DNA of 10,296 nt, taken from IMG/VR virus record IMGVR_UViG_2548876863_000020, positions 1 through 10,296 of that record; one strand, 5' to 3'. The first letter of the stretch is position 1. Each line of letters opens with the position of its first letter. The position numbers and the translations under genes are program-made. Shown piece by piece: positions 1 through 10,296 of the stretch. Source of the stretch: a virus. Its lineage: Duplodnaviria; Heunggongvirae; Uroviricota; Caudoviricetes. The notes under the pieces are model-generated. The model did not search any database. It saw nothing but the letters and a program-made list of their open reading frames with translations, and was not told where the DNA came from.

Positions 1-201
1 TTACCCATTGGCGCGGCTTAAGAGCTTATTTTTGAATTCACAATGGTCACGATATAACCATCTTGCTCGCCCGTGGATAACTTTGGCTTTAGGCAGGTCT
101 CCGGACTTAATCCGGTCATAGATGAAGGTTTTACCGAAGCCAGTATCAGCCATGATGAATTTCAAATCAACCAGTGAATCAGGCTGTAGTTCGTGTTGCA
201 T
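1..201 (-). CDS. Excisionase-like / AlpA-family small DNA-binding protein (66 aa)
   Basis: Complete ORF, ATG at 201..199 with GGAGA 8 nt upstream, stop at window base 1. Motif IMADTGFGKTFIYDRIKSGDLPKAKVIHGRARW matches the winged-helix AlpA/Xis pattern (TG..K.TIY..I..G.FP..K.G.R..W). Sits at the distal end of the leftward operon where lambdoid phages carry xis next to int. Confidence 0.6.
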   Translation of the reverse strand: MQHELQPDSLVDLKFIMADTGFGKTFIYDRIKSGDLPKAKVIHGRARWLYRDHCEFKNKLLSRANG

Positions 202-242
202 GAGTGCTATCTCCGAATAGGGAATCGAACCTGCAAATCAGG

Positions 243-266
243 CAATAAAAAACCGCATTGATGCGG
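243..266 (-). terminator. Putative intrinsic terminator (minus strand)
   Basis: Minus-strand RNA CCGCA-UCAA-UGCGG followed by UUUUUUAUUG; 5-bp GC-rich stem plus U6 tract, between the 114-aa gene and xis. Confidence 0.4.
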
Positions 267-323
267 CGATGGTAGGTCTGGATATCTTGATAAATGAAAA
301 TGCCTCATCGAGTGTGAGGCGGG

Positions 324-668
324 TTAGTCCTTGCGTAGCTCGCTGATTCTTCTGTAAGTCTCTGGTGCTTTGTTCCCGTACGTCTTCATTTCAGACTTCA
401 ACAGAGCAACGAGTGAATCCCATTCGTTGAGGATTCCTTTGAATGCCGGAACGCGCTTTGCAACCTTGTCGAATGAATCTCTGATTTCTGGAATCTGCTC
501 AACAAGTGCAACGCATCGTCGGAAATCTGCTGCGTCATGTGGAGCGCCGAAGTGATGACCATAGATATTCTTTTTCAGTCCACATGCGATTGAGGCAATA
601 GTTGCGCTACTGATGCCGACATCGCCAGTCGATTGCCATTTCAAAACCTTCATAGCCAAATCTGACAT
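324..668 (-). CDS. Hypothetical protein (114 aa)
   Basis: ORF-track frame 324..695; start refined to ATG 668..666 (MSDLAMKVLKW...) because GGAG lies 8 nt upstream and the upstream extension would run through a terminator hairpin. No family recognised. Confidence 0.6.
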   Translation of the reverse strand: MSDLAMKVLKWQSTGDVGISSATIASIACGLKKNIYGHHFGAPHDAADFRRCVALVEQIPEIRDSFDKVAKRVPAFKGILNEWDSLVALLKSEMKTYGNKAPETYRRISELRKD

Positions 669-675
669 TTCTTGT

Positions 676-702
676 CTCCAATAAAAAACCGCCATCAGGC
701 GG
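676..702 (-). terminator. Putative intrinsic terminator (minus strand)
   Basis: Minus-strand RNA CCGCC-UGAU-GGCGG followed by UUUUUUAUUGG. The stop codon TGA of the 55-aa ORF lies in the loop. Confidence 0.5.
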
Positions 703-862
703 CTTGGTGTTCTTTCAGTTCTTCAATTCGAATATTGGTTACGTCTGCATGTGCTATCTGCGCCCATATCATCCAGTGGTTATAACAGTCGTTGATGTTC
801 TCTGCTTCGATAACCCTGTTGAATGGTTCTCCATTCCATTCACCTGTGACTCGGAAGTGCAT
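695..862 (-). CDS. Small hypothetical protein (55 aa), below the ORF-track size cutoff
   Basis: ATG 862..860 with GGAG 7 nt upstream; translates MHFRVTGEWNGEPFNRVIEAENINDCYNHWMIWAQIAHADVTNIRIEELKEHQAA; stop 697..695 inside the terminator hairpin. Confidence 0.4.
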   Translation of the reverse strand: MHFRVTGEWNGEPFNRVIEAENINDCYNHWMIWAQIAHADVTNIRIEELKEHQAA

Positions 863-870
863 TTATCATC

Positions 871-900
871 TCCATAAAACAAAACTCGCCGTAGCGAGTT
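871..900 (-). terminator. Putative intrinsic terminator (minus strand)
   Basis: Minus-strand RNA AACUCGC-UACG-GCGAGUU (7-bp stem) followed by UUGUUUUAUGG, about 43 nt downstream of the 63-aa ORF. Confidence 0.5.
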
Positions 901-942
901 CAGATAAAAGAAATCCATCAATTGGTTAGGGTTTTTGTAATT

Positions 943-1134
943 CTACGAATTATGTTGTTTTTTAGCTTCAGCTTTCCATTCATCAAAGGCAGTGTCTTTG
1001 TTCATGGTGCTGATATTGATCTTACGGTCAATATCATATACACGCCACTCACCGTTAGGCCTCTCTTCGCATCTAACTAAGTATGAATTGCCATTAATAT
1101 CTATGCGTCTGTCTATTTGCATGAACATTTTCAA
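943..1134 (-). CDS. Small hypothetical protein (about 61-63 aa)
   Basis: ORF-track frame. Start ambiguous: TTG 1134 has AGAGGA 8 nt upstream; in-frame ATGs at 1128 and 1122. No family recognised. Confidence 0.5.
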   Translation of the reverse strand: MKMFMQIDRRIDINGNSYLVRCEERPNGEWRVYDIDRKINISTMNKDTAFDEWKAEAKKQHNS

Positions 1135-1245
1135 TTTTCGAATCCTCTTTAATATGCATTTTTTGCTATTTCAGTAGTTTACTATTGATGAGGCGTTATT
1201 ATACACACTTCATTAATGCAAGCATCTTTATGCTATGCTACTAAT

Positions 1246-1527
1246 TTAGCAATTGATATTCACCTTTATCGCGTATACCTTTACCGGCTTATCACCGAAG
1301 TGGGGGTGTGTGATTGTTTTCACTTCATATCCTCCATACGGAACATCAATTCTGCGACTGGAGTCGTCGCGCTTCGGATATCCCTTTGTGATAATCAGGC
1401 GGTCATACTCCCGGAACATAATTCGCTTATTCCAATAGTCATTACACAGGCGATACTCTTCCGTTTTCTCTCCTCGAATCATGGCATCGAAGTATTCACC
1501 TTTGACGGCAAGTTGTAGGTTAGCCAC
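1246..1527 (-). CDS. ASCH/DUF3850-like (PUA-fold) protein, tentative (93 aa)
   Basis: GTG start 1527..1525 with AGGAGG 6 nt upstream; overlaps the upstream gene stop by 8 nt. N-terminal pattern L.L.VKGEYFDAMIRGEKTEEYR resembles ASCH/DUF3850 as recalled; not verified by search. Confidence 0.4.
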   Translation of the reverse strand: MANLQLAVKGEYFDAMIRGEKTEEYRLCNDYWNKRIMFREYDRLIITKGYPKRDDSSRRIDVPYGGYEVKTITHPHFGDKPVKVYAIKVNINC

Positions 1528-1822
1528 GGTTAACCTCCTGCGGAGTAGCCTTTACAAGCACTGGTGCAAATCCATCTTCATTAAGGTTATGAATATAGAC
1601 TTCTGTTCTCCTGCGCTCTTCAACGTTTAATATTGTTTCTGGATCATAAACCCATACTTTCATTCGACTATTCCATGAAGAAATCGCTTCAGATCTAGTT
1701 CGTTTTTCTGGTCCTTGGGCACCACATTTGCATGACACATAGCGCATTTTCCCTCTGATACTGAATGAGTATCCGATGTTAAGCACAGTGGAACCACAGA
1801 ATGGGCAGCGATATAGATTCAT
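1520..1822 (-). CDS. Zinc-ribbon protein, Lar-like restriction-alleviation family candidate (100 aa)
   Basis: ATG 1822..1820 with AGGTGG upstream and ATGA overlap with the upstream gene. N-terminal CPFCG...CKCG four-cysteine ribbon is the motif I associate with the Lar family; the C-terminal 50 aa is an unrecognised extension. Confidence 0.45.
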   Translation of the reverse strand: MNLYRCPFCGSTVLNIGYSFSIRGKMRYVSCKCGAQGPEKRTRSEAISSWNSRMKVWVYDPETILNVEERRRTEVYIHNLNEDGFAPVLVKATPQEVNRG

Positions 1823-2520
1823 AAATCATCCACCTTAGGCGCAGCTGAGACAGCAACATTCCAGAACTCAGAAAACATATTGTATGCACCAGATAGATTG
1901 GAAGTGGCATACCCTCCAAGCTCACTTCTAATCTGAACGGCTCTCATCATTTCCGGTGTTAACTCCTTCGGCACCATAACCCAACCATCCGGAGTTACCG
2001 GAGAGTTGCCATCCAGCGCGTTCAACTTGTAAGCCTGGCTTACAGGTTCGGCTTCCAGTTCTGCTATGCGCTTCTCTGATGCTTCAAGTAACGCCTGCTT
2101 ATCGCGTAGCGCTTCTTCCAGTTCAGCAACATGGCACTCACTATCAATAAGGTTGTTCTCTGCGGCTTCCAGCTCAACACGCAGCTTCCCTACCGTTAGC
2201 GCAATATCCTCGTTCTCCTGATCACGGTTTTTGATGTATTGCTGGTTTCTTTCCCGTTCATCCAGCAGTGCCAGCACGGTAGCCGGATTGGCTGCAGCGA
2301 TGAATTCAGCATTGGCCTGCTGTTCCATTTGGAAATCTTCATCGAAACCGCTTTCAGGATGCGCTCCTTCAATTCTGCAAATAGGAATATATCCAGCAAC
2401 TTCACGATGAATTAGCGCATCATCACCATCAAATCGGCTTTCTCCATATTCGAGCGACCACTCACCACACGTTGCTTTTTCTGCCGCTTCACGCAGTGCC
2501 TGATAGTTAATTTTGGTCAT
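1819..2520 (-). CDS. Ead/Ea22-like family protein (233 aa), tentative
   Basis: ATG 2520..2518 with GGGTGA upstream. N-terminal INYQALREAAEKAT and internal LLDERERNQQYIKNRDQENEDIALTVGKLRVELE coiled coil resemble lambda Ea22-like proteins as recalled. Confidence 0.5.
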   Translation of the reverse strand: MTKINYQALREAAEKATCGEWSLEYGESRFDGDDALIHREVAGYIPICRIEGAHPESGFDEDFQMEQQANAEFIAAANPATVLALLDERERNQQYIKNRDQENEDIALTVGKLRVELEAAENNLIDSECHVAELEEALRDKQALLEASEKRIAELEAEPVSQAYKLNALDGNSPVTPDGWVMVPKELTPEMMRAVQIRSELGGYATSNLSGAYNMFSEFWNVAVSAAPKVDDL

Positions 2521-2521
2521 A

Positions 2522-2821
2522 TCACATCACCCTGAAGCCGTTGCATTTACGTAAGAAATCGCAGATATAGCCCTTCATTTTTTCATGCCAATCTCGATCA
2601 TTCCCATTGCACCAACCATCAGGTGGAGTCCAGTTTTCTATCAGAGCAGCCATTTTCTTTGCTTTCGCCGGAGTAGCTGTTGCGGTATCGCAGTAATGAC
2701 GAGTGTCAACCAACGCATCCATACCATCGATATCAAGTACGCAAAACCATGTGTGATTCGGCATTTCAACAGATGGTATTTGTTGCCCACGTCGACGTTT
2801 ATCAATAAGACATACAGTCAC
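2522..2821 (-). CDS. Hypothetical Cys/His-rich protein (99 aa)
   Basis: ORF-track frame 2522..2854; start refined to GTG 2821..2819 because AAAGGAGG lies 6 nt upstream and it forms a GTGA overlap with the stop of the 210-aa gene. Confidence 0.55.
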   Translation of the reverse strand: MTVCLIDKRRRGQQIPSVEMPNHTWFCVLDIDGMDALVDTRHYCDTATATPAKAKKMAALIENWTPPDGWCNGNDRDWHEKMKGYICDFLRKCNGFRVM

Positions 2822-3450
2822 TGGTTGCCTCCTTTGCGAAGCTGTTCCGCCCATTCTTCAAGGGATTTCTCCGCATATTCACCAGACAGGCCATCAATCG
2901 GACGCGGTTCATTAGCCAACTCTTCTTTTGCTGACAAAATCATGCGTGTAACGTCGAAAACTTCACGCAAAGACTTATTGATAAATCCGTGATTGAACGC
3001 AGCAGCAAGACGGCTGGCGGCATAGTTAATCCCCTCGTTGCGTGCTTCCGCACGTACTTCAGCAAGGAAAGCGTCGGTGGCTGGGGTATTTTCCATTAGT
3101 TTTTTTGACGTTGACCAAAGCGCGGAAAGCCACTCTTTATCAAACCATTTATCCTTATGGTGAAACATTTCATCAACTGTCTGGTGGCAGCGGGATACCT
3201 CAAAAAGGCACCGCGCATTCTCCGCCGCCAGCGCTGAAAACTTCTCGTGTGCCAACTTAACAGCCGAATCAGCCTGCTTAATTGACTCAATCGCTCTCTG
3301 TTGGTCTTCGGACAGAGCCGAAATCTTGGCCTCCGCTTCAGCAAATTTACGCACCAGATATTCAGCGTTTGTTTCGTTAACCTTTAAATCTCGTGGAATG
3401 CATTTACCTTTCAGAAAACCATCCATCTCAATTAGTGTCATTTGTTTCAT
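2818..3450 (-). CDS. Hypothetical protein (about 210 aa), predicted helical/coiled-coil
   Basis: ORF-track frame 2818..3468 (GTG); ATG 3450..3448 preferred, with GGAG about 10 nt upstream. No family recognised. Confidence 0.6.
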
Positions 3451-3607
3451 TTTTTTCCACTCCGCCACATCGCATTCAGATATTTGTTGTCATTAACAGA
3501 ACCGAAACTCTTTCTCTTAAGCAATTCCTCTCTCGATGGCATTGGTTTTACGCGTTGGCGAATAATCATTTCTGCCGGAAGAATGCCGGGATTGTATGCA
3601 AGTCCTC

Positions 3608-3889
3608 TCATGATTTACTCTCCATGAACTGGTCAACAGCCATGCTAAGTGATACACCTAACGTCTCGATATGCTGCTGAATATCCTGTAGCGTCTGCGC
3701 CTGAGATAACAGGATTTCACGGTTGCATAACTCTTTAACCAGATGCTCAAACTTGCTGTAATAACCGATACGACTGAGCGTTTCTTTCCCTGCATTCTCG
3801 CCTTCTTTGATAATTCCTCTTTCGCTAAGAATCAGGTCGTGTTTGGTTCCGGTAATAACGTATTTTCCGAGGTCGATGTTTAGCTTCAT
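3608..3889 (-). CDS. Hypothetical protein (93 aa)
   Basis: ORF-track frame, ATG 3889..3887, same strand and tight spacing with neighbours; weak RBS. No family recognised. Confidence 0.55.
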
Positions 3890-3905
3890 TGTTAATTATT
3901 CCATG

Positions 3906-4220
3906 TTAATTTATTCGTATGCCTGCTCTTTCTTCATCGAGTTTTTTTAGCTTGTATCGCATAGCCCTTACTGAATAAATTGAGCGGCAGGTTGCAATTG
4001 CTATTTCTTCTGCGGAGAACTTACCGAAAAGTGATACTTCGGCTCTTGTCCAGCGTCTTCCACGAAGTCGGCTAACAATGTCAGCTCCAATCCTTGTTGC
4101 TTTCGCCATTACTGCTTTTTCAGTCCTTTCCAGTTTTTCAGCGATAACTTCAACTGGCATTGTTGCCGCTACTTCGCACAAGAAATCGACTTCCCATTTC
4201 TCCCATGGAGTCTTTTTCAT
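3906..4220 (-). CDS. Hypothetical protein (104 aa) with an internal tandem repeat, possible DNA-binding
   Basis: Two roughly 40-aa halves share a W..EV..F...S/P.EEIA...R pattern (PWEKWEVDFLCEV...VEVIAEKLERTEKAV versus RRWTRAEVSLFGKFSAEEIAIATCRSIYSV). Confidence 0.55.
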   Translation of the reverse strand: MKKTPWEKWEVDFLCEVAATMPVEVIAEKLERTEKAVMAKATRIGADIVSRLRGRRWTRAEVSLFGKFSAEEIAIATCRSIYSVRAMRYKLKKLDEERAGIRIN

Positions 4221-4231
4221 AGTCGATACCG

Positions 4232-4720
4232 TTATTTGATAAGAAGTGAAGGTTTCCCAACTTTGAGTTGAGCGCCGGGGATATTTATTCCTGCTTTTAG
4301 TTGGTGTTTGATTGCCAGTTTGTCGGCTTTAATTGTCGTTTCAAACTCAACGTATTCAGGAGGAAGGGCGCTTGAGTCGATGATTTCTACAGTTTCTGAC
4401 GGTTTGCGGATTGTTACTTGGTGAATACCTGCTCGAATCTTTTTCTTGCCAACCATTTCAAGCGATGACGCTATATACGCCATAATGCTGTCAATCTTAT
4501 TTTGAATTACTGCGGCTCGTTCATTCAGTGACTTTGCCTCGTCCTTGAGGCGTTCAGCATAACCAGATTCATTTTTAATAATGGCGAGAAGTTGCTCTAT
4601 TTTATCGGTAAATTCTCCTTCCATTCCTTCTATTGTGTCAGCAATCATCTCTGGCTCTAAATCTGAATCCATCAATTTTGCGTATTCATTGGCTATTTCA
4701 TATAGTTTGCTCACTGGCAA
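4232..4720 (-). CDS. Coiled-coil recombination-associated protein, possibly Sipho_Gp157-like (162 aa)
   Basis: ATG 4720..4718 with GGAGG 6 nt upstream; overlaps the recT 3' end by 23 nt. Size, predicted coiled coil and position next to recT fit Gp157-family proteins; assignment is from memory only. Confidence 0.4.
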   Translation of the reverse strand: MPVSKLYEIANEYAKLMDSDLEPEMIADTIEGMEGEFTDKIEQLLAIIKNESGYAERLKDEAKSLNERAAVIQNKIDSIMAYIASSLEMVGKKKIRAGIHQVTIRKPSETVEIIDSSALPPEYVEFETTIKADKLAIKHQLKAGINIPGAQLKVGKPSLLIK

Positions 4721-5600
4721 CCTCCAGTTTCGCTTTGCATTCTATGTAAATGGCTTGTACGTTCTGCTGCAATTTCATTCCAGATGTCAGGCGATATGCT
4801 TCTGCAAAATATCGCTTCAAATCATCCATGTTTTCTGCCTGAGCCATTTCATCACAAAGAAGTTGTGCTTTTTCCATTATTTCCTGCTGGCGTTTCCGTT
4901 CATCTTCGCGGATATCTTCCTCTGATTTGTGCGGCATAACTGGTTCCTGATGCATACCTTCATCTTCGTTAAGCAGGTGAATGGCATTATCCAGTCGCTG
5001 GGCTTTAGGCCAGTATTTGCTGGCGCGTTTAACTATGGTTTTACGCGCCATCTCTTCCCAGAATGTCTTCCACGGTCCATTCTTTGCCTTGCTCGTTGCT
5101 TCCACAGCTTTAATTTCTGCCAGACTCATTTCTTCAGTCAGGTAGTCACCATCTGCTGTTTTAACCGTGCAATAACCTCCAACAATAGAGCCTCGCTCAC
5201 CAAATGCGTTGTATTTGTGGGTTGGTGCTGAATCAAGGCCATTTGATTCATAGGTGTCGTTTGAGTACACCAGTTTGCATTGCCCCCACTTAATTGATCC
5301 TGTCGATTGCGCAAGATGAAGTAATCCCATGTAACTGATATCAAGGCACACCATGCCGTCGCGAGGAACCAGATAAGCAAGTTTGCTGGCCGGGTTTAAG
5401 GTGATGCCGATCGCCGCAACATTGATGATGGCGTTCTGTGCGCTGGTTGGATTTGCCAGTGCTGTTTTAGCCAGGTAATCGTTTTTCTGGAAATACTGAA
5501 TTGCAAACTGGCTTTCCTTAGCCCATGTCACCGTCTGTTCAGTCAATGCTCCGCAGAATAACTGCTCTTGCTGTTTAACGAATTCAACGATATTGCTCAT
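4698..5600 (-). CDS. recT: RecT-family single-strand annealing recombinase (300 aa)
   Basis: ATG 5600..5598 with GGAGA 6 nt upstream. Conserved segment NGPWKTFWEEMARKTIVKRASKYWP matches the RecT signature (compare Rac RecT NGPWVTHWEEMAKKTAIRRLFKYLP, recalled). Confidence 0.85.
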   Translation of the reverse strand: MSNIVEFVKQQEQLFCGALTEQTVTWAKESQFAIQYFQKNDYLAKTALANPTSAQNAIINVAAIGITLNPASKLAYLVPRDGMVCLDISYMGLLHLAQSTGSIKWGQCKLVYSNDTYESNGLDSAPTHKYNAFGERGSIVGGYCTVKTADGDYLTEEMSLAEIKAVEATSKAKNGPWKTFWEEMARKTIVKRASKYWPKAQRLDNAIHLLNEDEGMHQEPVMPHKSEEDIREDERKRQQEIMEKAQLLCDEMAQAENMDDLKRYFAEAYRLTSGMKLQQNVQAIYIECKAKLEVASEQTI

Positions 5601-5908
5601 GCAGCTTCTCCATAAATATGTCTGCGTTTGAATATTGCGAAGGCATATTCAGCCTTAACTCTTTCGGTTATTGCATCCCAGAACCATTCAGCGGCTTTTT
5701 CCTGATAGTTACAGTCATCATCTTCCAGCCAGTCGATAGCGTCCTTAGTGTGTTCATCTGGTTTATATGAGCGAAGCATTTCGCTTATTGGGTCGCAACG
5801 TTTGCAGAGGCGATCAACTTCACTGTTGATTCGCTCGTAATCTTCATCAGTAAAACTTGCGATTATTTGCGATATTTCACGCTTATCATTCAGAGTCAGA
5901 ATCATCAT
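5597..5908 (-). CDS. Hypothetical acidic protein (103 aa), immediately upstream of and coupled to recT
   Basis: ATG 5908..5906 with AGGAG upstream; ATGA overlap with the recT start. Occupies the slot that Gam/Abc-type RecBCD inhibitors take in lambda/P22; function inferred from position only. Confidence 0.6.
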   Translation of the reverse strand: MMILTLNDKREISQIIASFTDEDYERINSEVDRLCKRCDPISEMLRSYKPDEHTKDAIDWLEDDDCNYQEKAAEWFWDAITERVKAEYAFAIFKRRHIYGEAA

Positions 5909-5989
5909 CTTTCTCCTGTTCTTTGTGCTGATTGAGCATTTTGTTCATCTGACGAATGAATTCTTCGTCTGACCAGTTATCCGTAAAAC

Positions 5990-6160
5990 TCATGGACGGC
6001 CTTGTTGTTTCAAAATATCCCAAAGCTTTTCGAGCAAACTTTTCATTCTTGGTTGTTTAAAGTCTGCTCCGGTTAAAATATTTTTTCGTGAATGCTGTAC
6101 CGATAAAATCGGGTTGAAAGGGCGAACCGATGCCGCCCCTGCAATAGCGAACTGTTGCAT
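5990..6160 (-). CDS. cIII: cIII-like protein (56 aa)
   Basis: Internal ATG 6160..6158 of the 5990..6265 frame, with AAGGAG 7 nt upstream. MQQFAIAG... start and ...SLLEKLWDILKQQGRP end resemble lambda CIII (MQYAIAG...SLLERI...RLIDILNQPGVP, recalled). The 35 codons upstream in the track ORF lack an RBS and overlap a terminator. Confidence 0.5.
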   Translation of the reverse strand: MQQFAIAGAASVRPFNPILSVQHSRKNILTGADFKQPRMKSLLEKLWDILKQQGRP

Positions 6161-6220
6161 AGGATGCTCCTTCTGTTTGATTGCATAACGAAAACGCCTC
6201 GAGTGAAGCGTTATTGGTAT

Positions 6221-6250
6221 GCATATAAAAAGGCCCTCACACTGGAGGGC
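6221..6250 (-). terminator. Putative intrinsic terminator (minus strand) upstream of cIII
   Basis: Minus-strand RNA GCCCUC-CAGUGU-GAGGGC followed by CUUUUUAUAU. Confidence 0.5.
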
Positions 6251-6384
6251 AAAGAAGATTTCCAATAATCAGAACAAGTCGGCTCCTGTTTAGTTACGAG
6301 CGACATTGCTCCGTGTATTCACTCGTTGGAATGAATACACAGTGCAGTGTTTATTCTGTTGTTTATGCCAAAAATAAAGGCCGA

Positions 6385-7008
6385 CTATGCGGCTTCGGAA
6401 GGAAGTCCAATCATCTTATTCAAATCTTCTACCCGTAAAGCAGGAAGTGCTGTACTTGCTTTATCTGCTTCTTTTGGTAGCAATTCTTTGCTTTCAGGCC
6501 AAACTTCAATAAGTCGCTTAACTGTTGTGACTGAGTTCAAAGCAGCCCATACATTTGATTCGATATCCTTTTTCAAGGCTTCAAGGTTTTGTTGCAATGC
6601 GCAGATTTCATCAAACCTTTTTGTTATTTCGTGTTCTGCGTCAAACATGCATTTATCTTTAGTCGGAGTAGGGAGCAATATATCTTCTCCGTTGCCGTCT
6701 TTCCCATATGAATGCCATCCAACCCTTCTGCCAGATACAGTCAGATAAATCGAAGTAGAACGAACATCGCATGAGTAAAATGAACATCCCAGCTTTTCAA
6801 GTTCTTCACTTATAGCTACTAACTTGGATGATAACTGATCCACTTCCTCAGTTTTATTTTTACCGCCAAACGCAATAACTCTGGCGTCAAGTGCAAGCTG
6901 GTTCTTTAACTTTGTTACTTCTTCAAGTTCAGTGAAAACCCCAGACTTAATTAAAGCGTTACGAGCGATTTTCTCTTTCATTCTCGTAGTTAAGCGGATT
7001 GATGACAT
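6385..7008 (-). CDS. Hypothetical protein (207 aa)
   Basis: ORF-track frame 6385..7023 (TTG); ATG 7008..7006 preferred, with GAGAGGT upstream. Lies between ral-like and cIII-like. No family recognised. Confidence 0.65.
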   Translation of the reverse strand: MSSIRLTTRMKEKIARNALIKSGVFTELEEVTKLKNQLALDARVIAFGGKNKTEEVDQLSSKLVAISEELEKLGCSFYSCDVRSTSIYLTVSGRRVGWHSYGKDGNGEDILLPTPTKDKCMFDAEHEITKRFDEICALQQNLEALKKDIESNVWAALNSVTTVKRLIEVWPESKELLPKEADKASTALPALRVEDLNKMIGLPSEAA

Positions 7009-7021
7009 ATTAATACCTCTC

Positions 7022-7054
7022 AAATAAGAAAATAAAGGCCACCATCAGGCAGCC
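7022..7054 (-). terminator. Putative intrinsic terminator (minus strand) after ral-like gene
   Basis: Minus-strand RNA GGCUGCC-UGAU-GGUGGCC (7 bp including two G-U pairs) followed by UUUAUUUUCUUAUUU; the ral-like stop TGA is in the loop. Confidence 0.45.
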
Positions 7055-7245
7055 TTGTTGTTCTGTTTACCAAGTTCTCTGGCAATCATTGCCGTAGTTC
7101 GTATTGCCCATTTATCGACATATTTCCCATCCTCCATTACAGGAAGCATTTCTTCAGGCTTAACCATGCATTCCGATTGCAGCTTGCATCCATTGCATCG
7201 CTTGAATTGTCCACACCATTGATTTTTATCAATAGTCGTAGTCAT
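7045..7245 (-). CDS. ral: Ral-like restriction-alleviation protein (66 aa), cysteine-rich
   Basis: ATG 7245..7243. Sequence MTTTIDKNQWCGQFKRCNGCKLQSEC... matches my recollection of lambda Ral closely, and it lies downstream of N in the pL operon as ral does in lambda. Not verified by search. Confidence 0.5.
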   Translation of the reverse strand: MTTTIDKNQWCGQFKRCNGCKLQSECMVKPEEMLPVMEDGKYVDKWAIRTTAMIARELGKQNNKAA

Positions 7246-7323
7246 ACGGATAGTCCTGGTATTGTTCCATCACATCCTGCGGATGCTCTTCGAACTCTTC
7301 AAATTCTTCTTCCATATCTCACC

Positions 7324-7623
7324 TCAAATAAGTGGTTTGCTGCCTAATTTCATTTTCTGGCAACCAACACAAGTCACACCCATTTCACTGCGTGGCTTGC
7401 GGTAGTAAATACGGTTCTGTTTACGCTCGACTTCTTCTTTCTTCTTGCAGCAAAGGCTTCCTAGCGATGCTGCTTTGTCTGCTCTGACGCAACCAGAGAG
7501 CTTTAGCGCAATTTTTCGCGCCAGTCGCTGCTCTTGCATCGCCTGTTCACGTTGAGCCTGTCTGCGTGCTCTGCGGCGATTTCTGGCGTTATCGTCAGCC
7601 AGATATGTAATGACTACTGTCAT
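7324..7623 (-). CDS. N: Antitermination protein N (99 aa)
   Basis: ATG 7623..7621 with GGAGG 5 nt upstream (track ORF extends further with a non-ATG start). Arginine-rich motif NARNRRRARRQAQREQ near the N-terminus; C-terminus ERKQNRIYYRKPRSEMGVTCVGCQKMKLGSKPLI parallels lambda N (ERKNQRTWYSKPGERGITCSGRQKIKGKSIPLI, recalled). Confidence 0.85.
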   Translation of the reverse strand: MTVVITYLADDNARNRRRARRQAQREQAMQEQRLARKIALKLSGCVRADKAASLGSLCCKKKEEVERKQNRIYYRKPRSEMGVTCVGCQKMKLGSKPLI

Positions 7624-7678
7624 GTTGACCTCCGATGAAACAACTTTGGAATTGATAGTGATTGCAAAGTGGTTTCTG

Positions 7679-7707
7679 GCCCCTCGAACTGAGGGGCAGA
7701 AAGAGCA
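7679..7707 (-). promoter_or_regulatory. GC-rich hairpin with boxA-like flank in the N leader (function uncertain)
   Basis: Minus-strand RNA UGCUCUUUCU then GCCCCUC-AGUUC-GAGGGGC (7-bp perfect stem), about 55 nt upstream of the N start; no U tract after it, so not a classical terminator. Confidence 0.35.
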
Positions 7708-7936
7708 TCTCGCCACCTAATAGGTCGATGCTCGGATCGAGAGATTTAATTAACCTCGGTTTTGAAGTTATGCATTCACATAAATCCTCCTACCTCTTGT
7801 GCAGCTTTCTTGAATATGGTGGCGGCTGCATAACGCCTATGGAATTGACTTTGGCGGTGACGCGCCGGGTGCTTATCTTCCGGTTGCCGTCGTGCAGCTG
7901 CACTTCACGTCACCCCAAAGCCAACTACTCTTTGGT

Positions 7937-7978
7937 TCCCGCATTTCGGCGGGACAATCCCATCAATGTTAAAGAGCA
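7937..7978 (-). promoter_or_regulatory. nutL (boxA + boxB)
   Basis: Minus-strand RNA UGCUCUUUAAC (boxA-like; consensus CGCUCUUUA) followed after 14 nt by hairpin UCCCGC-CGAAAU-GCGGGA. The same boxA plus identical boxB occurs in the same transcript orientation downstream of cro. Confidence 0.7.
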
Positions 7979-8023
7979 TGCCAATCTGTTCCGTTTGGCT
8001 ACCAGCGTCCTGCTGATGGCTAA

Positions 8024-8052
8024 AGAATACTGTAGGTATTTTATTGTGTAAA
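8024..8052 (-). promoter_or_regulatory. pL candidate (-35 TTTACA, 17-nt spacer, -10 TATTCT on minus strand)
   Basis: Read on the minus strand: TTTACA (plus 8047-8052), spacer of 17, TATTCT (plus 8024-8029). Same -10 hexamer as the pR candidate; overlaps OL1, about 40 nt upstream of nutL. Confidence 0.45.
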
Positions 8053-8110
8053 TACCCAAGGTATTTATTTTTGGTGAAATAATGATAAGCAAATGAATAC
8101 AAAGGATATT
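8026..8110. promoter_or_regulatory. OL operator cluster (three 15-bp palindromic sites)
   Basis: AATAC-TGTAG-GTATT (8026-8040), AATAC-CCAAG-GTATT (8051-8065), AATAC-AAAGG-ATATT (8096-8110). Same AATAC-N5-GTATT motif as in the cI-cro intergenic region. Confidence 0.6.
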
Positions 8111-8197
8111 TATTTTTTTCGGTGTCTGCTTGTTCAGTGCTTTTTATGCGGGATATGTGAAGTGGATCCCGATAGCTATTGCTGCCGGGATTATGAG

Positions 8198-8566
8198 TTA
8201 GTCAGCGAAGGTTAAGACGAGAATTACCTTAATGATGTCTGCTACAACAGACACGGCCATAGATAAACCAAAGACGATCCAAGCCATAGAGATGTCTTCA
8301 CTACCATCGTATAGAGTTCCGTAATCACTGGTGTAAGGCGTAAATGTCGCGCCTTGATACAACAGGTATAAGCTTGAACCATAGAGGATAAATGCAGATA
8401 TCCCTTGTATTGCTATGATCACTAGAATCATGAAACGAGCTGATCTATGCGCCCAAGCCTGGCTTATTTTTTCTGATAGAGATTTCGCAATAAAAGCATG
8501 CGCTAAGCCGTAAATTGTCGAGATTGCCAACATCCCAAAAAAGCTTGCTATAGCGGTTCCAACCAT
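8198..8566 (-). CDS. Small integral membrane protein (about 122 aa, three predicted TM helices) co-transcribed downstream of cI
   Basis: ORF-track frame 8198..8587 (TTG overlapping the cI stop); ATG 8566..8564 with AAGGGG upstream is the more likely start. Three hydrophobic stretches of roughly 25 residues each. No terminator between it and cI. Confidence 0.65.
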   Translation of the reverse strand: MVGTAIASFFGMLAISTIYGLAHAFIAKSLSEKISQAWAHRSARFMILVIIAIQGISAFILYGSSLYLLYQGATFTPYTSDYGTLYDGSEDISMAWIVFGLSMAVSVVADIIKVILVLTFAD

Positions 8567-8583
8567 AAGCGCCCCTTGCGTGA

Positions 8584-9300
8584 TCAAACCAGCCTTAGTT
8601 TTGTCTCAATTGCAACGCCTATAATCTTGCAGTTTCCATTGATTGGCACGAGAGGCCATGCAGGGTTAAGTCCCTTGAGGTATTTATTTCCGCCGTCGAT
8701 TATCAGCTTCTTGAATGTTGCTTCGTTAGAGTCAGAAAGTTTTGCTATGACCAAGCTGCCGTTGATCGCCTCCCTTCCGGTATCGAAAAGAACGAATGTT
8801 CCCTCTGGAATGCTTAACCCAACCGGTGCCGTCATTGAATCACCTTCCACTTTAAGCCAGAACGCATTACCTTGAATATGCGCGTCAGACTCAAGCCAAA
8901 CATCTATGTCTTTAATGGTGTATGGTTCGCATGCTTCACACCACGAGCCAGCCTGGATACTGCTTAACACCGGATACCTCTTTCCTGCTCTGTATTCCCC
9001 TGCATACCTTACGTTGGCATCGCTCTTAAGGCTTTCTGCCTGTTCTGCAACCTTGGCAGCAATTGACTGGCTAAAATCAGCAATTGAGACTTGCAACAGT
9101 CGTGCAAAACCAGATGCAACCTCAACGTTTAGCGCGTTTCTGCCATTAAGATAATGCCCTACCGCTCCTTGGGTGATACCCAGTTCATCAGCGATTGAGT
9201 ATTGGGTTATTCCCAATTCTTTCTTTTTTGACTCATACAAAGCCTTAAGCCGCTTAGCGTCTTCGAGCTGTTCTGTCGTCAGTGATTTTTTATTTTCCAT
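8584..9300 (-). CDS. cI: CI-type prophage repressor (238 aa), HTH plus S24 autopeptidase domain
   Basis: Strong resemblance to lambda CI as recalled (LTTEQLEDAKRLKALYESKKKELG...). Ala-Gly cleavage site in IQAGSW, catalytic Ser in EGDSMTAP, Lys in TFKKLI. Divergent from cro with operators between them. Confidence 0.95.
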   Translation of the reverse strand: MENKKSLTTEQLEDAKRLKALYESKKKELGITQYSIADELGITQGAVGHYLNGRNALNVEVASGFARLLQVSIADFSQSIAAKVAEQAESLKSDANVRYAGEYRAGKRYPVLSSIQAGSWCEACEPYTIKDIDVWLESDAHIQGNAFWLKVEGDSMTAPVGLSIPEGTFVLFDTGREAINGSLVIAKLSDSNEATFKKLIIDGGNKYLKGLNPAWPLVPINGNCKIIGVAIETKLRLV

Positions 9301-9306
9301 AGCTTA

Positions 9307-9335
9307 ATTCTAATAGCTAAGGTACTTAAACTAAA
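9307..9335 (-). promoter_or_regulatory. pRM candidate, leaderless or near-leaderless cI transcript
   Basis: On the minus strand, TAGAAT (plus 9307-9312) ends 6 nt before the cI ATG and there is no Shine-Dalgarno, as for lambda pRM; the -35 is weak (TTTAGT). Confidence 0.35.
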
Positions 9336-9375
9336 AATACCCTAAGTATTGATTGCTTTGAATACCTGTAGTATT
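9312..9375. promoter_or_regulatory. OR operator cluster (OR3, OR2, OR1)
   Basis: AATAG-CTAAG-GTACT (9312-9326), AATAC-CCTAA-GTATT (9336-9350), AATAC-CTGTA-GTATT (9361-9375); centre-to-centre spacing 24-25 bp. Confidence 0.65.
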
Positions 9376-9377
9376 CT
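9349..9377 (+). promoter_or_regulatory. pR candidate (-35 TTGATT, 17-nt spacer, -10 TATTCT)
   Basis: -35 at 9349-9354 overlaps OR2; -10 at 9372-9377 overlaps OR1; about 30 nt upstream of the cro start. Confidence 0.5.
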
Positions 9378-9406
9378 TTGTTCATGGTTAATAACGGAGA
9401 GTGCAT

Positions 9407-9601
9407 ATGATTCGAATGACACTTGCCGATTACGCCAAAATCCATGGACAGGCTAAAGCAGCCAGTGACTTTGGTGTAATCCAGTGCGCTATCAGCAAGG
9501 CCATTCTGGCAGGCCGTAACATTATGGTTACGGTAAAGCCTGATGGCAGTGTGATTGGAGAGGAAGTTCGTCCTTTCCCAAGCAACAAGAAAAACAAATA
9601 G
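9407..9601 (+). CDS. cro: Cro repressor (64 aa)
   Basis: ATG 9407 with GGAGA 6 nt upstream (track ORF begins at GTG 9401). Resembles lambda Cro as recalled (ITLKDYA..FGQTK.A.DLGV.QSAINKAI.AGR...DGSV..EEV.PFPSNKK). Confidence 0.9.
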
Positions 9602-9607
9602 TAACAC

Positions 9608-9652
9608 CGCTCTTTAACAGTCATGGTCCTCATTCCCGCCGAAATGCGGGAA
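9608..9652 (+). promoter_or_regulatory. nutR (boxA + boxB)
   Basis: CGCTCTTTA at 9608-9616 (boxA consensus), then hairpin TTCCCGC-CGAAAT-GCGGGAA at 9633-9652, identical to the nutL boxB, immediately after the cro stop. Confidence 0.75.
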
Positions 9653-9658
9653 TACAAC

Positions 9659-9690
9659 GCGCACAAGTTGATGCGCATAACTTCTTATTA
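9659..9690 (+). terminator. tR1 candidate
   Basis: Hairpin GCGCA-caagttga-TGCGC followed by a moderately U-rich AUAACUUCUUAUU, between nutR and cII. Weak as an intrinsic terminator; could be Rho-dependent as in lambda. Confidence 0.3.
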
Positions 9691-9709
9691 GTTAAGGAAA
9701 TACTTACAT

Positions 9710-9988
9710 ATGCAACTTACAAGTACTCGCAAGAAAGCGAATGCAATTACAAGCAACATCCTGAATCGAATTGCTGTACGTGGTCAGCGAAAGGTTGCCG
9801 ACGCGTTAGGGATTAATGAATCGCAAATTTCGCGATGGAAAGACAGCTTCATCCCAAAAATGGGAATGCTTCTGGCTGTTCTTGAATGGGGTGTTGAAGA
9901 CGAGGAGTTGGCGGAACTGGCTAAGAAAGTAGCCAGAATGCTGACAAAAGAAAAAGCCCCGAAGAACGGCGAATTCTTCGAGGCCTGA
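9710..9988 (+). CDS. cII: CII transcriptional activator (92 aa)
   Basis: ATG 9710 with AAGGAAA upstream. Resembles lambda CII as recalled (KSQISRWK....[14 protein letters not shown]...A.LA..VA..LT). Confidence 0.9.
9944..9980 (-). terminator. oop-like antisense terminator inside the cII 3' end
   Basis: Minus-strand RNA CGAAGAA-UUCGCCG-UUCUUCG (7-bp stem) followed by GGGCUUUUUCUUUUG; position matches the lambda oop RNA terminator. Confidence 0.35.
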
Positions 9989-10022
9989 TGTAGAAAGACT
10001 GGATCAATCCACAGGAGTAATT

Positions 10023-10169
10023 ATGACAAAACAACTCAGTCCTTACCAGGACAAAATTCACAAACACATACTACGTGATCGCTTCCTGTCCAGCTTCAAG
10101 CAGCCTGGTCGATTCCGGGCTGAGTTGGAAAAAGTGAAGCTGATGCAGAAGGAGAAAGGTCATGAGTAA
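10023..10169 (+). CDS. Small hypothetical protein (48 aa), below the ORF-track cutoff
   Basis: ATG 10023 with AGGAG 6 nt upstream; translates [48 protein letters not shown]; stop 10167-10169. Confidence 0.4.
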
Positions 10170-10296
10170 TCTTGCAACCGTAACACATTTAAGGCCTTCA
10201 CAACGGCCTGTGGAGCGTCGTGTGGCAGAAGTTGAAGATGGTTATACTGAACCGCCCCGGGAATCCTGGAGACTAAACTCCCTGAGAAAGAGGTAA
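10162..10296 (+). CDS. Small ORF (44 aa) with an N-terminus reminiscent of replication protein O; ends at the window edge
   Basis: ATG 10162 with AGGAG upstream, overlapping the previous stop by 8 nt. [10 protein letters not shown]...[11 protein letters not shown] parallels lambda O MTNTAKILNF...RNVADLDDGYA (recalled); stop TAA at 10294-10296. Every forward frame has a stop in the last 60 nt. Confidence 0.4.

Follow-up and report, generated by a model that had tools for sequence, protein, structure and literature searches.

What a lysogen gains from a small membrane protein encoded directly behind its cI repressor gene was the question raised by an open reading frame (ORF) on the minus strand of virus record IMGVR_UViG_2548876863_000020 (Caudoviricetes). 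Positions 1 to 10,296 of this IMG/VR record, hereafter the window, hold the early-left arm and the immunity region of a lambdoid prophage. An initial annotation, made from the letters of the DNA, had taken the ORF for a candidate superinfection-exclusion or abortive-infection gene. Judged by its profile match and by alignment, the ORF is hkaS of coliphage HK620 (AAK28867; phrog_6534), catalogued in 2001 under an annotation that gives a name and no function. The comparisons given below indicate that hkaS is an old, co-inherited, selected yet fast-evolving fixed partner of this repressor, and not a recent AT-rich insertion. HkaS may act as a stand-alone cytoplasmic-membrane block to heteroimmune superinfection; this tentative reading, drawn from position, expression logic and protein class, was given a rough probability of 0.3, and hkaS is regarded as a reasonable candidate for lysogen-expressed phage exclusion or switch tuning.

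Identity of hkaS and its translation start

The ORF listing gave a frame of 129 amino acids at 8198..8587 opening with TTG, the last two bases of which overlap the cI stop codon (8584-8586). Residues 8-129 of this form matched positions 1-122 of the 122-position profile phrog_6534 (E = 3.6e-79), and the protein was 97.5-99% identical to HkaS of HK620 (97.5%) and to HK140_049. In the HK620 record the ORF is entered as gene hkaS, product 'unknown', with cI on one side and tIMM, OL3-OL1, pL and nutL on the other. HK140_049 and the orthologues of mEpX2 and HK630 are the same gene, encoding 122 amino acids at the same place between cI and tIMM/OL3, with no material difference; all of these orthologues, that of HK620 included, are annotated as 'unknown' or 'hypothetical'. 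No functional study of hkaS was found in the literature on the gene, its carrier phages and lambdoid exclusion.

The ATG at 8566 is the conserved start: every homologue, even at 52% identity, aligns from this methionine. The seven-codon extension from TTG is broken by in-frame stops in the Salmonella and Hafnia lineages, while a Shine-Dalgarno sequence (AAGGGG here, AAGGA elsewhere) was found five to seven nucleotides (nt) 5' of the ATG in all four diverged lineages. Since the ATG is conserved, the extension interrupted and the Shine-Dalgarno sequence kept, hkaS begins 17 nt past the cI stop and does not overlap it. The initial annotation had described an ORF of 122-129 residues starting at or overlapping the cI stop; the overlap belongs to the 129-residue TTG form, whereas the conserved start of the 122-residue form lies 17 nt later.

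The family is small. A word-indexed protein search returned 12 clusters at 90% identity, all of the HkaS family, from E. coli, Hafnia, Salmonella and metagenomes; an exhaustive profile search of 1.84 billion representatives returned a single 50% cluster (122 amino acids) and one fragment of 44 amino acids. In these protein searches the family was seen solely inside the HK620-type prophage immunity module.

Linkage with cI and molecular evolution

hkaS was present in 146 of 5,426 complete E. coli genomes (~2.7%), at 147 places, and cI likewise occupied 147 places in 146 genomes. Among viral contigs of IMG/VR, hkaS was intact in all 80 retained loci, and cI lay directly upstream in each of the 79 that extended far enough. 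The spacer between both genes measured 17 nt in the window and 17-20 nt in all loci compared. Diverged HkaS proteins (83%, 61% and 52% identity) each stood directly behind a cI that was 86-96% identical and accompanied by the same operators; N and the replication and recombination genes differed among these lineages. The 1.7 kb around hkaS were 98-99% identical to the immunity regions of HK140, mEpX2, HK620, HK630, Hf4s and some Stx2c phages, and the cI of the window was 99.6% identical to that of HK620.

Synonymous divergence (dS) between the window and the Hafnia type was 0.72 for hkaS and 0.76 for cI; both genes were saturated against the other lineages, including the Salmonella type. The ratio of non-synonymous to synonymous divergence (dN/dS) amounted to 0.13 for hkaS (range 0.13-0.2) and 0.03 for cI, according to which purifying selection acts on hkaS, though less strongly than on cI. 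Segregating sites within the E. coli clade numbered 18 synonymous and 20 non-synonymous in hkaS, the latter all conservative, and 32 synonymous and four non-synonymous in cI.

The sequence had been thought to be somewhat more AT-rich than cI, in line with acquisition as a moron. hkaS was indeed poorer in GC (42.0% against 45.7% for cI), although the difference is small and lies inside the normal range of the window (34-51%). The idea of a recent moron was dropped because dS equals that of cI and the linkage with cI is one-to-one in every data set.

The phrog_6534 match, the dN/dS range and the absence of internal stops (none in 80 viral-contig copies) indicate that hkaS is a genuine selected gene, beyond a chance ORF. 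That it might be a mis-called or non-functional hydrophobic frame persisting by hitch-hiking beside cI is hardly credible: the weaker selection than on cI, a frameshift in one phage and the lack of a known domain would agree with it, but frame, 122-residue length, start codon and Shine-Dalgarno sequence were kept at 52% identity with saturated dS, dN/dS was well below 1, and a confident structure prediction was reached from only eight sequences.

The frameshift concerns Hf4s (MT833387), where a 1-nt deletion lies in the A6 run of codons 32-33 (~975-980, corresponding to ~8467-8472 of the window) and cuts the annotated hkaS to 77 amino acids. Hf4s is nonetheless temperate and forms stable lysogens. 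The deletion may reflect a genuine loss, a tract prone to slippage or an error in sequencing the homopolymer; if real, it would mean that hkaS is dispensable for lysogeny, and nothing more.

Operon anatomy and expected expression

Gene order was lambda-like, namely cII-cro-OR-cI-ORF-OL/pL-nutL-N, and hkaS is the second cistron 3' of cI, with OL, pL, nutL and N next. The slot had rightly been compared with that of rexAB, and it also proved correct that no RexA-like partner is present, as nothing lies between cI and hkaS and OL3 begins ~90 nt beyond hkaS. Neither was a terminator found between both genes: the scan gave no minus-strand site there, and its only hits in 7600-9450 were on the plus strand. 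The operator pattern ATAC-N5-GTAT occurred 11 times in the window against 2.6 expected, and the sites flank the two-gene unit cI-hkaS. No Shine-Dalgarno sequence could be read before cI, and a candidate pRM -10 hexamer, under the promoter-scan threshold, lies only 6 nt 5' of its ATG; the position of this hexamer suggests that the cI-hkaS message is leaderless or near-leaderless, as in lambda.

A stable stem-loop starts nine nt past the hkaS stop. In the Salmonella, Hafnia and metagenome lineages a hairpin likewise follows hkaS here, of unrelated sequence each time and none with a U tract; a hairpin that keeps its position with a different sequence in each lineage suggests a conserved role as 3' end or terminator. 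It is thus likely, as far as folding can tell, that this hairpin forms the 3' end or a stabiliser of the immunity transcript. The HK620 authors put tIMM a little beyond this hairpin, where it overlaps OL3. Neither the Rfam nor the tRNA scan of the window returned a match. A small RNA, svsR, reported at the cI 3' end in prophage NC-SV, was also considered; NC-SV is reported to integrate at icd, like e14 (PMC12803456).

Two further candidates in this region were set aside. Operator-like sites inside hkaS, one perfect (8357-8369) and one with a single mismatch (8398-8410), 41 bp apart, were considered as CI looping sites; they are probably due to chance, since both were lost through synonymous codons in the Salmonella and metagenome lineages and the mismatched one alone recurs in the Hafnia type. 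The perfect site encodes the invariant Y-L-L-Y motif of HkaS. A plus-strand ORF of 40 amino acids (8093..8215) has its start within OL3 and runs into the 3' end of hkaS. Its equivalent in Hf4s carries a gene annotation, but the ORF is probably spurious, as the underlying stretch was not conserved between lineages.

Predicted membrane protein

HkaS has the character of a membrane protein without soluble domain. Kyte-Doolittle hydropathy (19-residue window) peaked above 1.6 at residues 1-27, 42-68 and 91-122, and the AlphaFold2 model (mean predicted local distance difference test score 89.6, from eight sequences only) displayed long helices at 2-29, 41-73 and 89-121 folded into a three-helix hairpin bundle, loop 1 containing a short amphipathic helix (31-38) and loop 2 a small beta hairpin. 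The three membrane helices announced in the initial annotation were supported by both methods. Loop 1 is basic (K28, K33, H40, R41, R44) and loop 2 acidic (D81, D87, E90, D91), from which, by the positive-inside rule, HkaS should be a three-pass inner-membrane protein with its short N-terminus in the periplasm and its C-terminus in the cytoplasm (N-out/C-in).

The most conserved parts were the predicted cytoplasmic loop (K-I-S-Q-A-W-x-H-R-x-A-R-F) and the C-terminal ILVLTFAD, which is invariant. Helix 3 displayed one invariant face formed by W96, F99, S106, D110, K113 and V117, with a stripe S106-D110-K113; the invariant polar residues within helices are Q54, S65, S106, D110 and K113. Measured as the proportion of non-synonymous differences (pN), divergence was lowest in the cytoplasmic loop in each of the three comparisons that involved the Salmonella and metagenome lineages (pN 0.16-0.25). 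It was highest in the periplasmic loop in two of the three, those involving the metagenome lineage (pN 0.49-0.50), which would fit an outward-facing specificity surface. The main protein polymorphism concerns residues 93-94 at the periplasmic end of helix 3 (...DISMAW... or ...DITVAW...); the TV form was encountered in 34 of 80 viral contigs, 32 of which carry the commonest protein variant, while the window carries SM.

The homology and topology checks suggested for the ORF gave phrog_6534 ('unknown') as the only match, three predicted helices and no characterised homologue outside defence. phrog_6534 was the only PHROG hit at E <= 0.1, and no PHROG with a known exclusion function was matched. 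NCBIfam gave no match, no defence family of PADLOC-DB 2.0 matched at E <= 1, and a sequence profile search of the PDB returned nothing at E <= 10. Pfam RexB did not match at E <= 0.1. In hhalign comparisons HkaS reached a probability of 0.6% with RexB and 0.06% with 434 Hex. Fold searches retrieved generic helix bundles only, with no BFVD match at E <= 0.001. A Pfam match to TssN was rejected as chance hydrophobic similarity, being below threshold (E = 0.031; 14 bits, the cut-off being 30).

The polar stripe of helix 3 raises the possibility of a solitary abortive-infection (Abi) effector, in which an HkaS oligomer would form a latent pore or proton leak lined by the Asp/Lys residues of that stripe; it would be opened by something that the infecting phage does at the membrane, for instance by holin insertion or by the injection conduit, and the cell would die before phage are released. 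Abi systems commonly use membrane-disrupting effectors. The stripe parallels the proposed role of an acidic residue in helix 3 of lambda RexB, whose slot and expression logic hkaS shares, and the polar residues inside the helices are invariant. The predicted topology, read from charge distribution and model, resembles that of class I holins. This possibility is unlikely all the same. hkaS has no RexA-like sensor gene beside it and HkaS no infection-sensing cytoplasmic domain, no PADLOC or Pfam profile was matched, and RexB is unrelated by hhalign and has four helices instead of three. Unlike holin genes, hkaS belongs to an immunity operon and not to a lysis cassette beside an endolysin; its product ends in ...LTFAD and lacks the charged C-terminal tail and the dual start of Met-Lys-Met type.

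Comparison with known genes of the slot and of superinfection exclusion

The interval between cI and N has been described as a mosaic hotspot for lysogen-expressed accessory or defence genes (PMC8585504, PMC7067206), and the varied cargo found behind distant relatives of the present cI agrees with this description. Phages 434 and Sf101 (cI ~52% identical) have hex in the slot, Enterobacter phage BHUENT3 (cI 65% identical) has two unrelated ORFs, and Serratia phage OS31 (cI 71%) and mEp213 (cI 51%) have no gene there. At the BHUENT3 locus (2170-2886) the repressor is closely related to that of the window in its C-terminal domain; the cargo pair consists of a protein of 127 amino acids with Cys pairs and another of 109 amino acids, whose body is coiled-coil-like and which ends in a membrane helix. 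Exclusion or Abi is the usual role of genes transcribed together with lambdoid repressors, as do rexAB, stk, hex and bstA (PMC3564112, PMC8585504, PMC7067206).

As is predicted for HkaS, lambda RexB belongs to the integral proteins of the inner membrane; its gene likewise lies 3' of cI, between cI and tIMM/OL, and RexB also carries a charged residue within its third membrane helix. The gene is transcribed from pRM, the transcript ending at tIMM before OL (10.1101/2021.04.19.439022). In contrast to HkaS, whose three helices would leave the termini on opposite sides, RexB has four helices and both termini in the cytoplasm; hkaS has no rexA partner, being separated by 17 nt from cI and by ~90 nt from OL3, displays no arrangement of the pLIT type, and is unrelated in sequence.

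434 hex is likewise the second cistron of a pRM-cI-X unit, beside the closest characterised relative of the present cI (52%), and its product is of similar size (134 amino acids against 122). Hex differs by a signal-like N-terminal segment followed by a hydrophilic body where HkaS has three membrane helices; hex overlaps the cI stop whereas hkaS begins 17 nt later, and their sequences are unrelated. Hex serves both to exclude P22 and to stabilise the repressor, whose RecA-stimulated cleavage it inhibits (PMC3564112).

P22 SieA, T4 Imm and HK97 gp15 are small inner-membrane proteins without soluble domain, made by the resident phage and acting alone (PMC10461980, PMC11436027), and HkaS is predicted to be of the same class. 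HkaS shows no sequence similarity to them, its only PHROG hit being phrog_6534, and the genes of SieA, Imm and gp15 occupy other genomic places. What these three proteins target corresponds to the machinery by which related phages enter, whereas hkaS travels with its immunity module between virion types. In BTP1-like prophages, bstA also lies directly 3' of cI; it is presumed to share the cI promoter, and its association with the repressor region is conserved (PMC8585504). HkaS differs as a membrane protein of 122 amino acids without PADLOC match.

Possible functions of HkaS

Block to superinfection was favoured tentatively. Within the lambdoid immunity module of HK620 type, hkaS would be the second and last cistron of a pRM-cI-hkaS maintenance operon. 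CI at OR would drive pRM in a lysogen, and the message would be read through the 17-nt spacer; translation of hkaS would rely on its own Shine-Dalgarno sequence, and transcription would stop at the hairpin or tIMM just before OL3. HkaS would then hinder either the entry of DNA or some step that the incoming phage carries out at the membrane, as SieA, Imm and gp15 do. Small inner-membrane proteins of known function encoded by prophages mostly block DNA entry, SieA being an example (PMC10461980). With no sensor domain and no partner gene, a two-component Abi system is disfavoured.

Several observations weigh against such a block. The hypothesis is reasonable but backed by no homology, in sequence or fold, to known exclusion proteins (Pfam, PHROG, PADLOC, PDB and fold searches). 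An arms race was considered and rejected, as no excess of non-synonymous divergence was found, non-synonymous polymorphism being in excess relative to divergence and the changes being conservative; the periplasmic loop was nearly unchanged between the E. coli and Hafnia types (pN 0.04). The module was found in podoviruses, in HK97-like and lambda-like siphoviruses and in Stx phages, and this spread across virion types argues that hkaS is not matched to one entry machinery. Swappable defence cargo would also be expected to be kept less strictly than in this one-to-one association with a single cI type. Finally, in the one lysogen study of a carrier phage that was found, Hf4s showed no post-adsorption exclusion of three virulent phages (10.1101/2021.06.09.447823), a result that is uninformative for hkaS because the gene is frameshifted in Hf4s.

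The strict linkage and the conserved cytoplasmic face would be best accounted for by a modulator of the switch, where HkaS tethers or shields CI via its cytoplasmic loop and C-terminus and so tunes spontaneous or SOS induction. Linkage with a single cI type held for E. coli, for the viral contigs and for every diverged lineage, with equal dS for both genes, and cI itself is very conserved, as is the cytoplasmic face within HkaS. In 434, the Hex protein of this slot has a demonstrated role in protecting the repressor (PMC3564112). In lambda, RexB and RexA bind CI and bias the transition from lysogeny to lysis, and RexB, an integral membrane protein, contacts CI in two-hybrid assays (10.1101/2021.04.19.439022). 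Such a modulator is nevertheless doubtful. HkaS is homologous to neither Hex nor RexB, and Hex is a signal-peptide protein rather than a polytopic one; the cytoplasmic surface is small, with ~17 loop residues and a tail of two to three residues. A 17-nt spacer without room for recombination joints could alone give tight linkage. Related repressors at 51-71% identity (OS31, mEp213) have no gene at this place, and Hf4s still lysogenises with a frameshifted hkaS (10.1101/2021.06.09.447823). It is unlikely, in a stronger form of the same idea, that HkaS is an integral third component of the immunity switch, a membrane anchor or shield of CI that sets the induction threshold, exclusion being a side effect, as has been argued for Hex and for RexA/RexB.

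Purifying selection without an arms-race signature, together with the constitutive expression in lysogens that the operon anatomy leads one to expect, would also agree with a lysogenic-conversion factor. HkaS would in that case alter host physiology (stress, tolerance of bacteriocins or antibiotics, regulation of transporters) to the benefit of the lysogen. Among small membrane proteins of bacteria, many act as regulators of transporters or sensors, and three-helix proteins of ~100-115 amino acids include the immunity proteins of pore-forming colicins, for which the Pfam scan of HkaS was negative. A conversion factor is quite improbable, as HkaS has no homology to any such family and its own family is confined to the prophage immunity module.

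The slot has repeatedly yielded mechanistically new functions of lysogens (Rex, Nun, Stk, Hex and BstA). Besides Stx2c phages, carriers of the hkaS immunity type include HK620, HK140, HK630 and mEpX2, model phages able to plate on laboratory strains. As HkaS is a single protein of 122 residues without relatives, a phenotype, if found, would define a new family with a tiny and tractable effector, and because hkaS is so strictly inherited with a single repressor, it lends itself to deciding cleanly whether accessory genes of this kind serve defence or the switch. If there were no phenotype, hkaS would be one more conserved prophage ORFan.

Feature coordinates and neighbouring genes

Table 1. Coordinates in the window of hkaS, the flanking genes and the putative regulatory sites (aa, amino acids).
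Feature	Positions	Strand	Remarks
nutL boxA GCTCTTTAA	7969..7977	-	invariant alignment block; annotated in HK620, HK140 and mEpX2
antiterminator N	7324..7623	-	phrog_271 (E = 9e-38), arginine-rich motif; first gene of the pL operon and downstream limit of the slot
pL	8052..8024	-	-35 TTTACA, -10 TATTCT; promoter scan and HK620 annotation
OL/pL region with OL1 (8027-8039), OL2 (8052-8064) and OL3 (8097-8109)	8024..8109	-	pattern search and HK620 annotation; conserved in all lineages
stem-loop	8166..8191	-	RNAfold; without U tract
hkaS	8198..8566	-	122 aa and stop; non-conserved alternative TTG start at 8587
hkaS Shine-Dalgarno AAGGGG	8572..8577	-	5 nt 5' of the ATG, within the 17-nt cI-hkaS spacer; read from sequence
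cI repressor	8584..9300	-	238 aa; HTH_3 and Peptidase_S24 (Pfam E = 5e-24 and 8e-10); first cistron
candidate pRM -10 TAGAAT	9307..9312	-	6 nt 5' of the cI ATG; proposed from sequence, under the promoter-scan threshold
OR operators	9311..9376		ATAC-N5-GTAT at 9337-9349 and 9362-9374, degenerate OR3 at ~9311-9327; pattern search and positions from HK620
cro	9407..9601	+	Pfam Cro (E = 3.6e-26); start taken from HK620 cro; divergent from cI

The minus strand of the window carries an xis-like gene, several ORFs of unknown function, Lar-like, Gp157/Gam-like and RecT genes, cIII, a gene of 212 amino acids, ral and N, followed by pL/OL, hkaS and cI; on the plus strand are cro, cII and the start of the replication genes. 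The ATG of N lies at 7623 and is preceded by GGAGGT, as read from the sequence.

Between nutL and N, a stretch of ~140 nt (~7700-7845) is common to the window and HK140 and is absent in HK620, mEpX2 and the other carriers; it marks a mosaic joint just downstream of the immunity module, and HK140 has a 41-aa ORF (HK140_048) annotated in it. The pL operon includes two restriction-alleviation genes, one Lar-like (1520-1822, minus strand; phrog_599) and one of lambda ral type (7045-7245, minus strand; phrog_1055, E = 7e-49). The 212-aa ORF between cIII and ral (6385-7023, minus strand) matched solely phrog_1965, of unknown function (E = 4e-82), with no PADLOC and no significant NCBIfam match; it occupies roughly the place of sieB in HK140 and lambda imm434.

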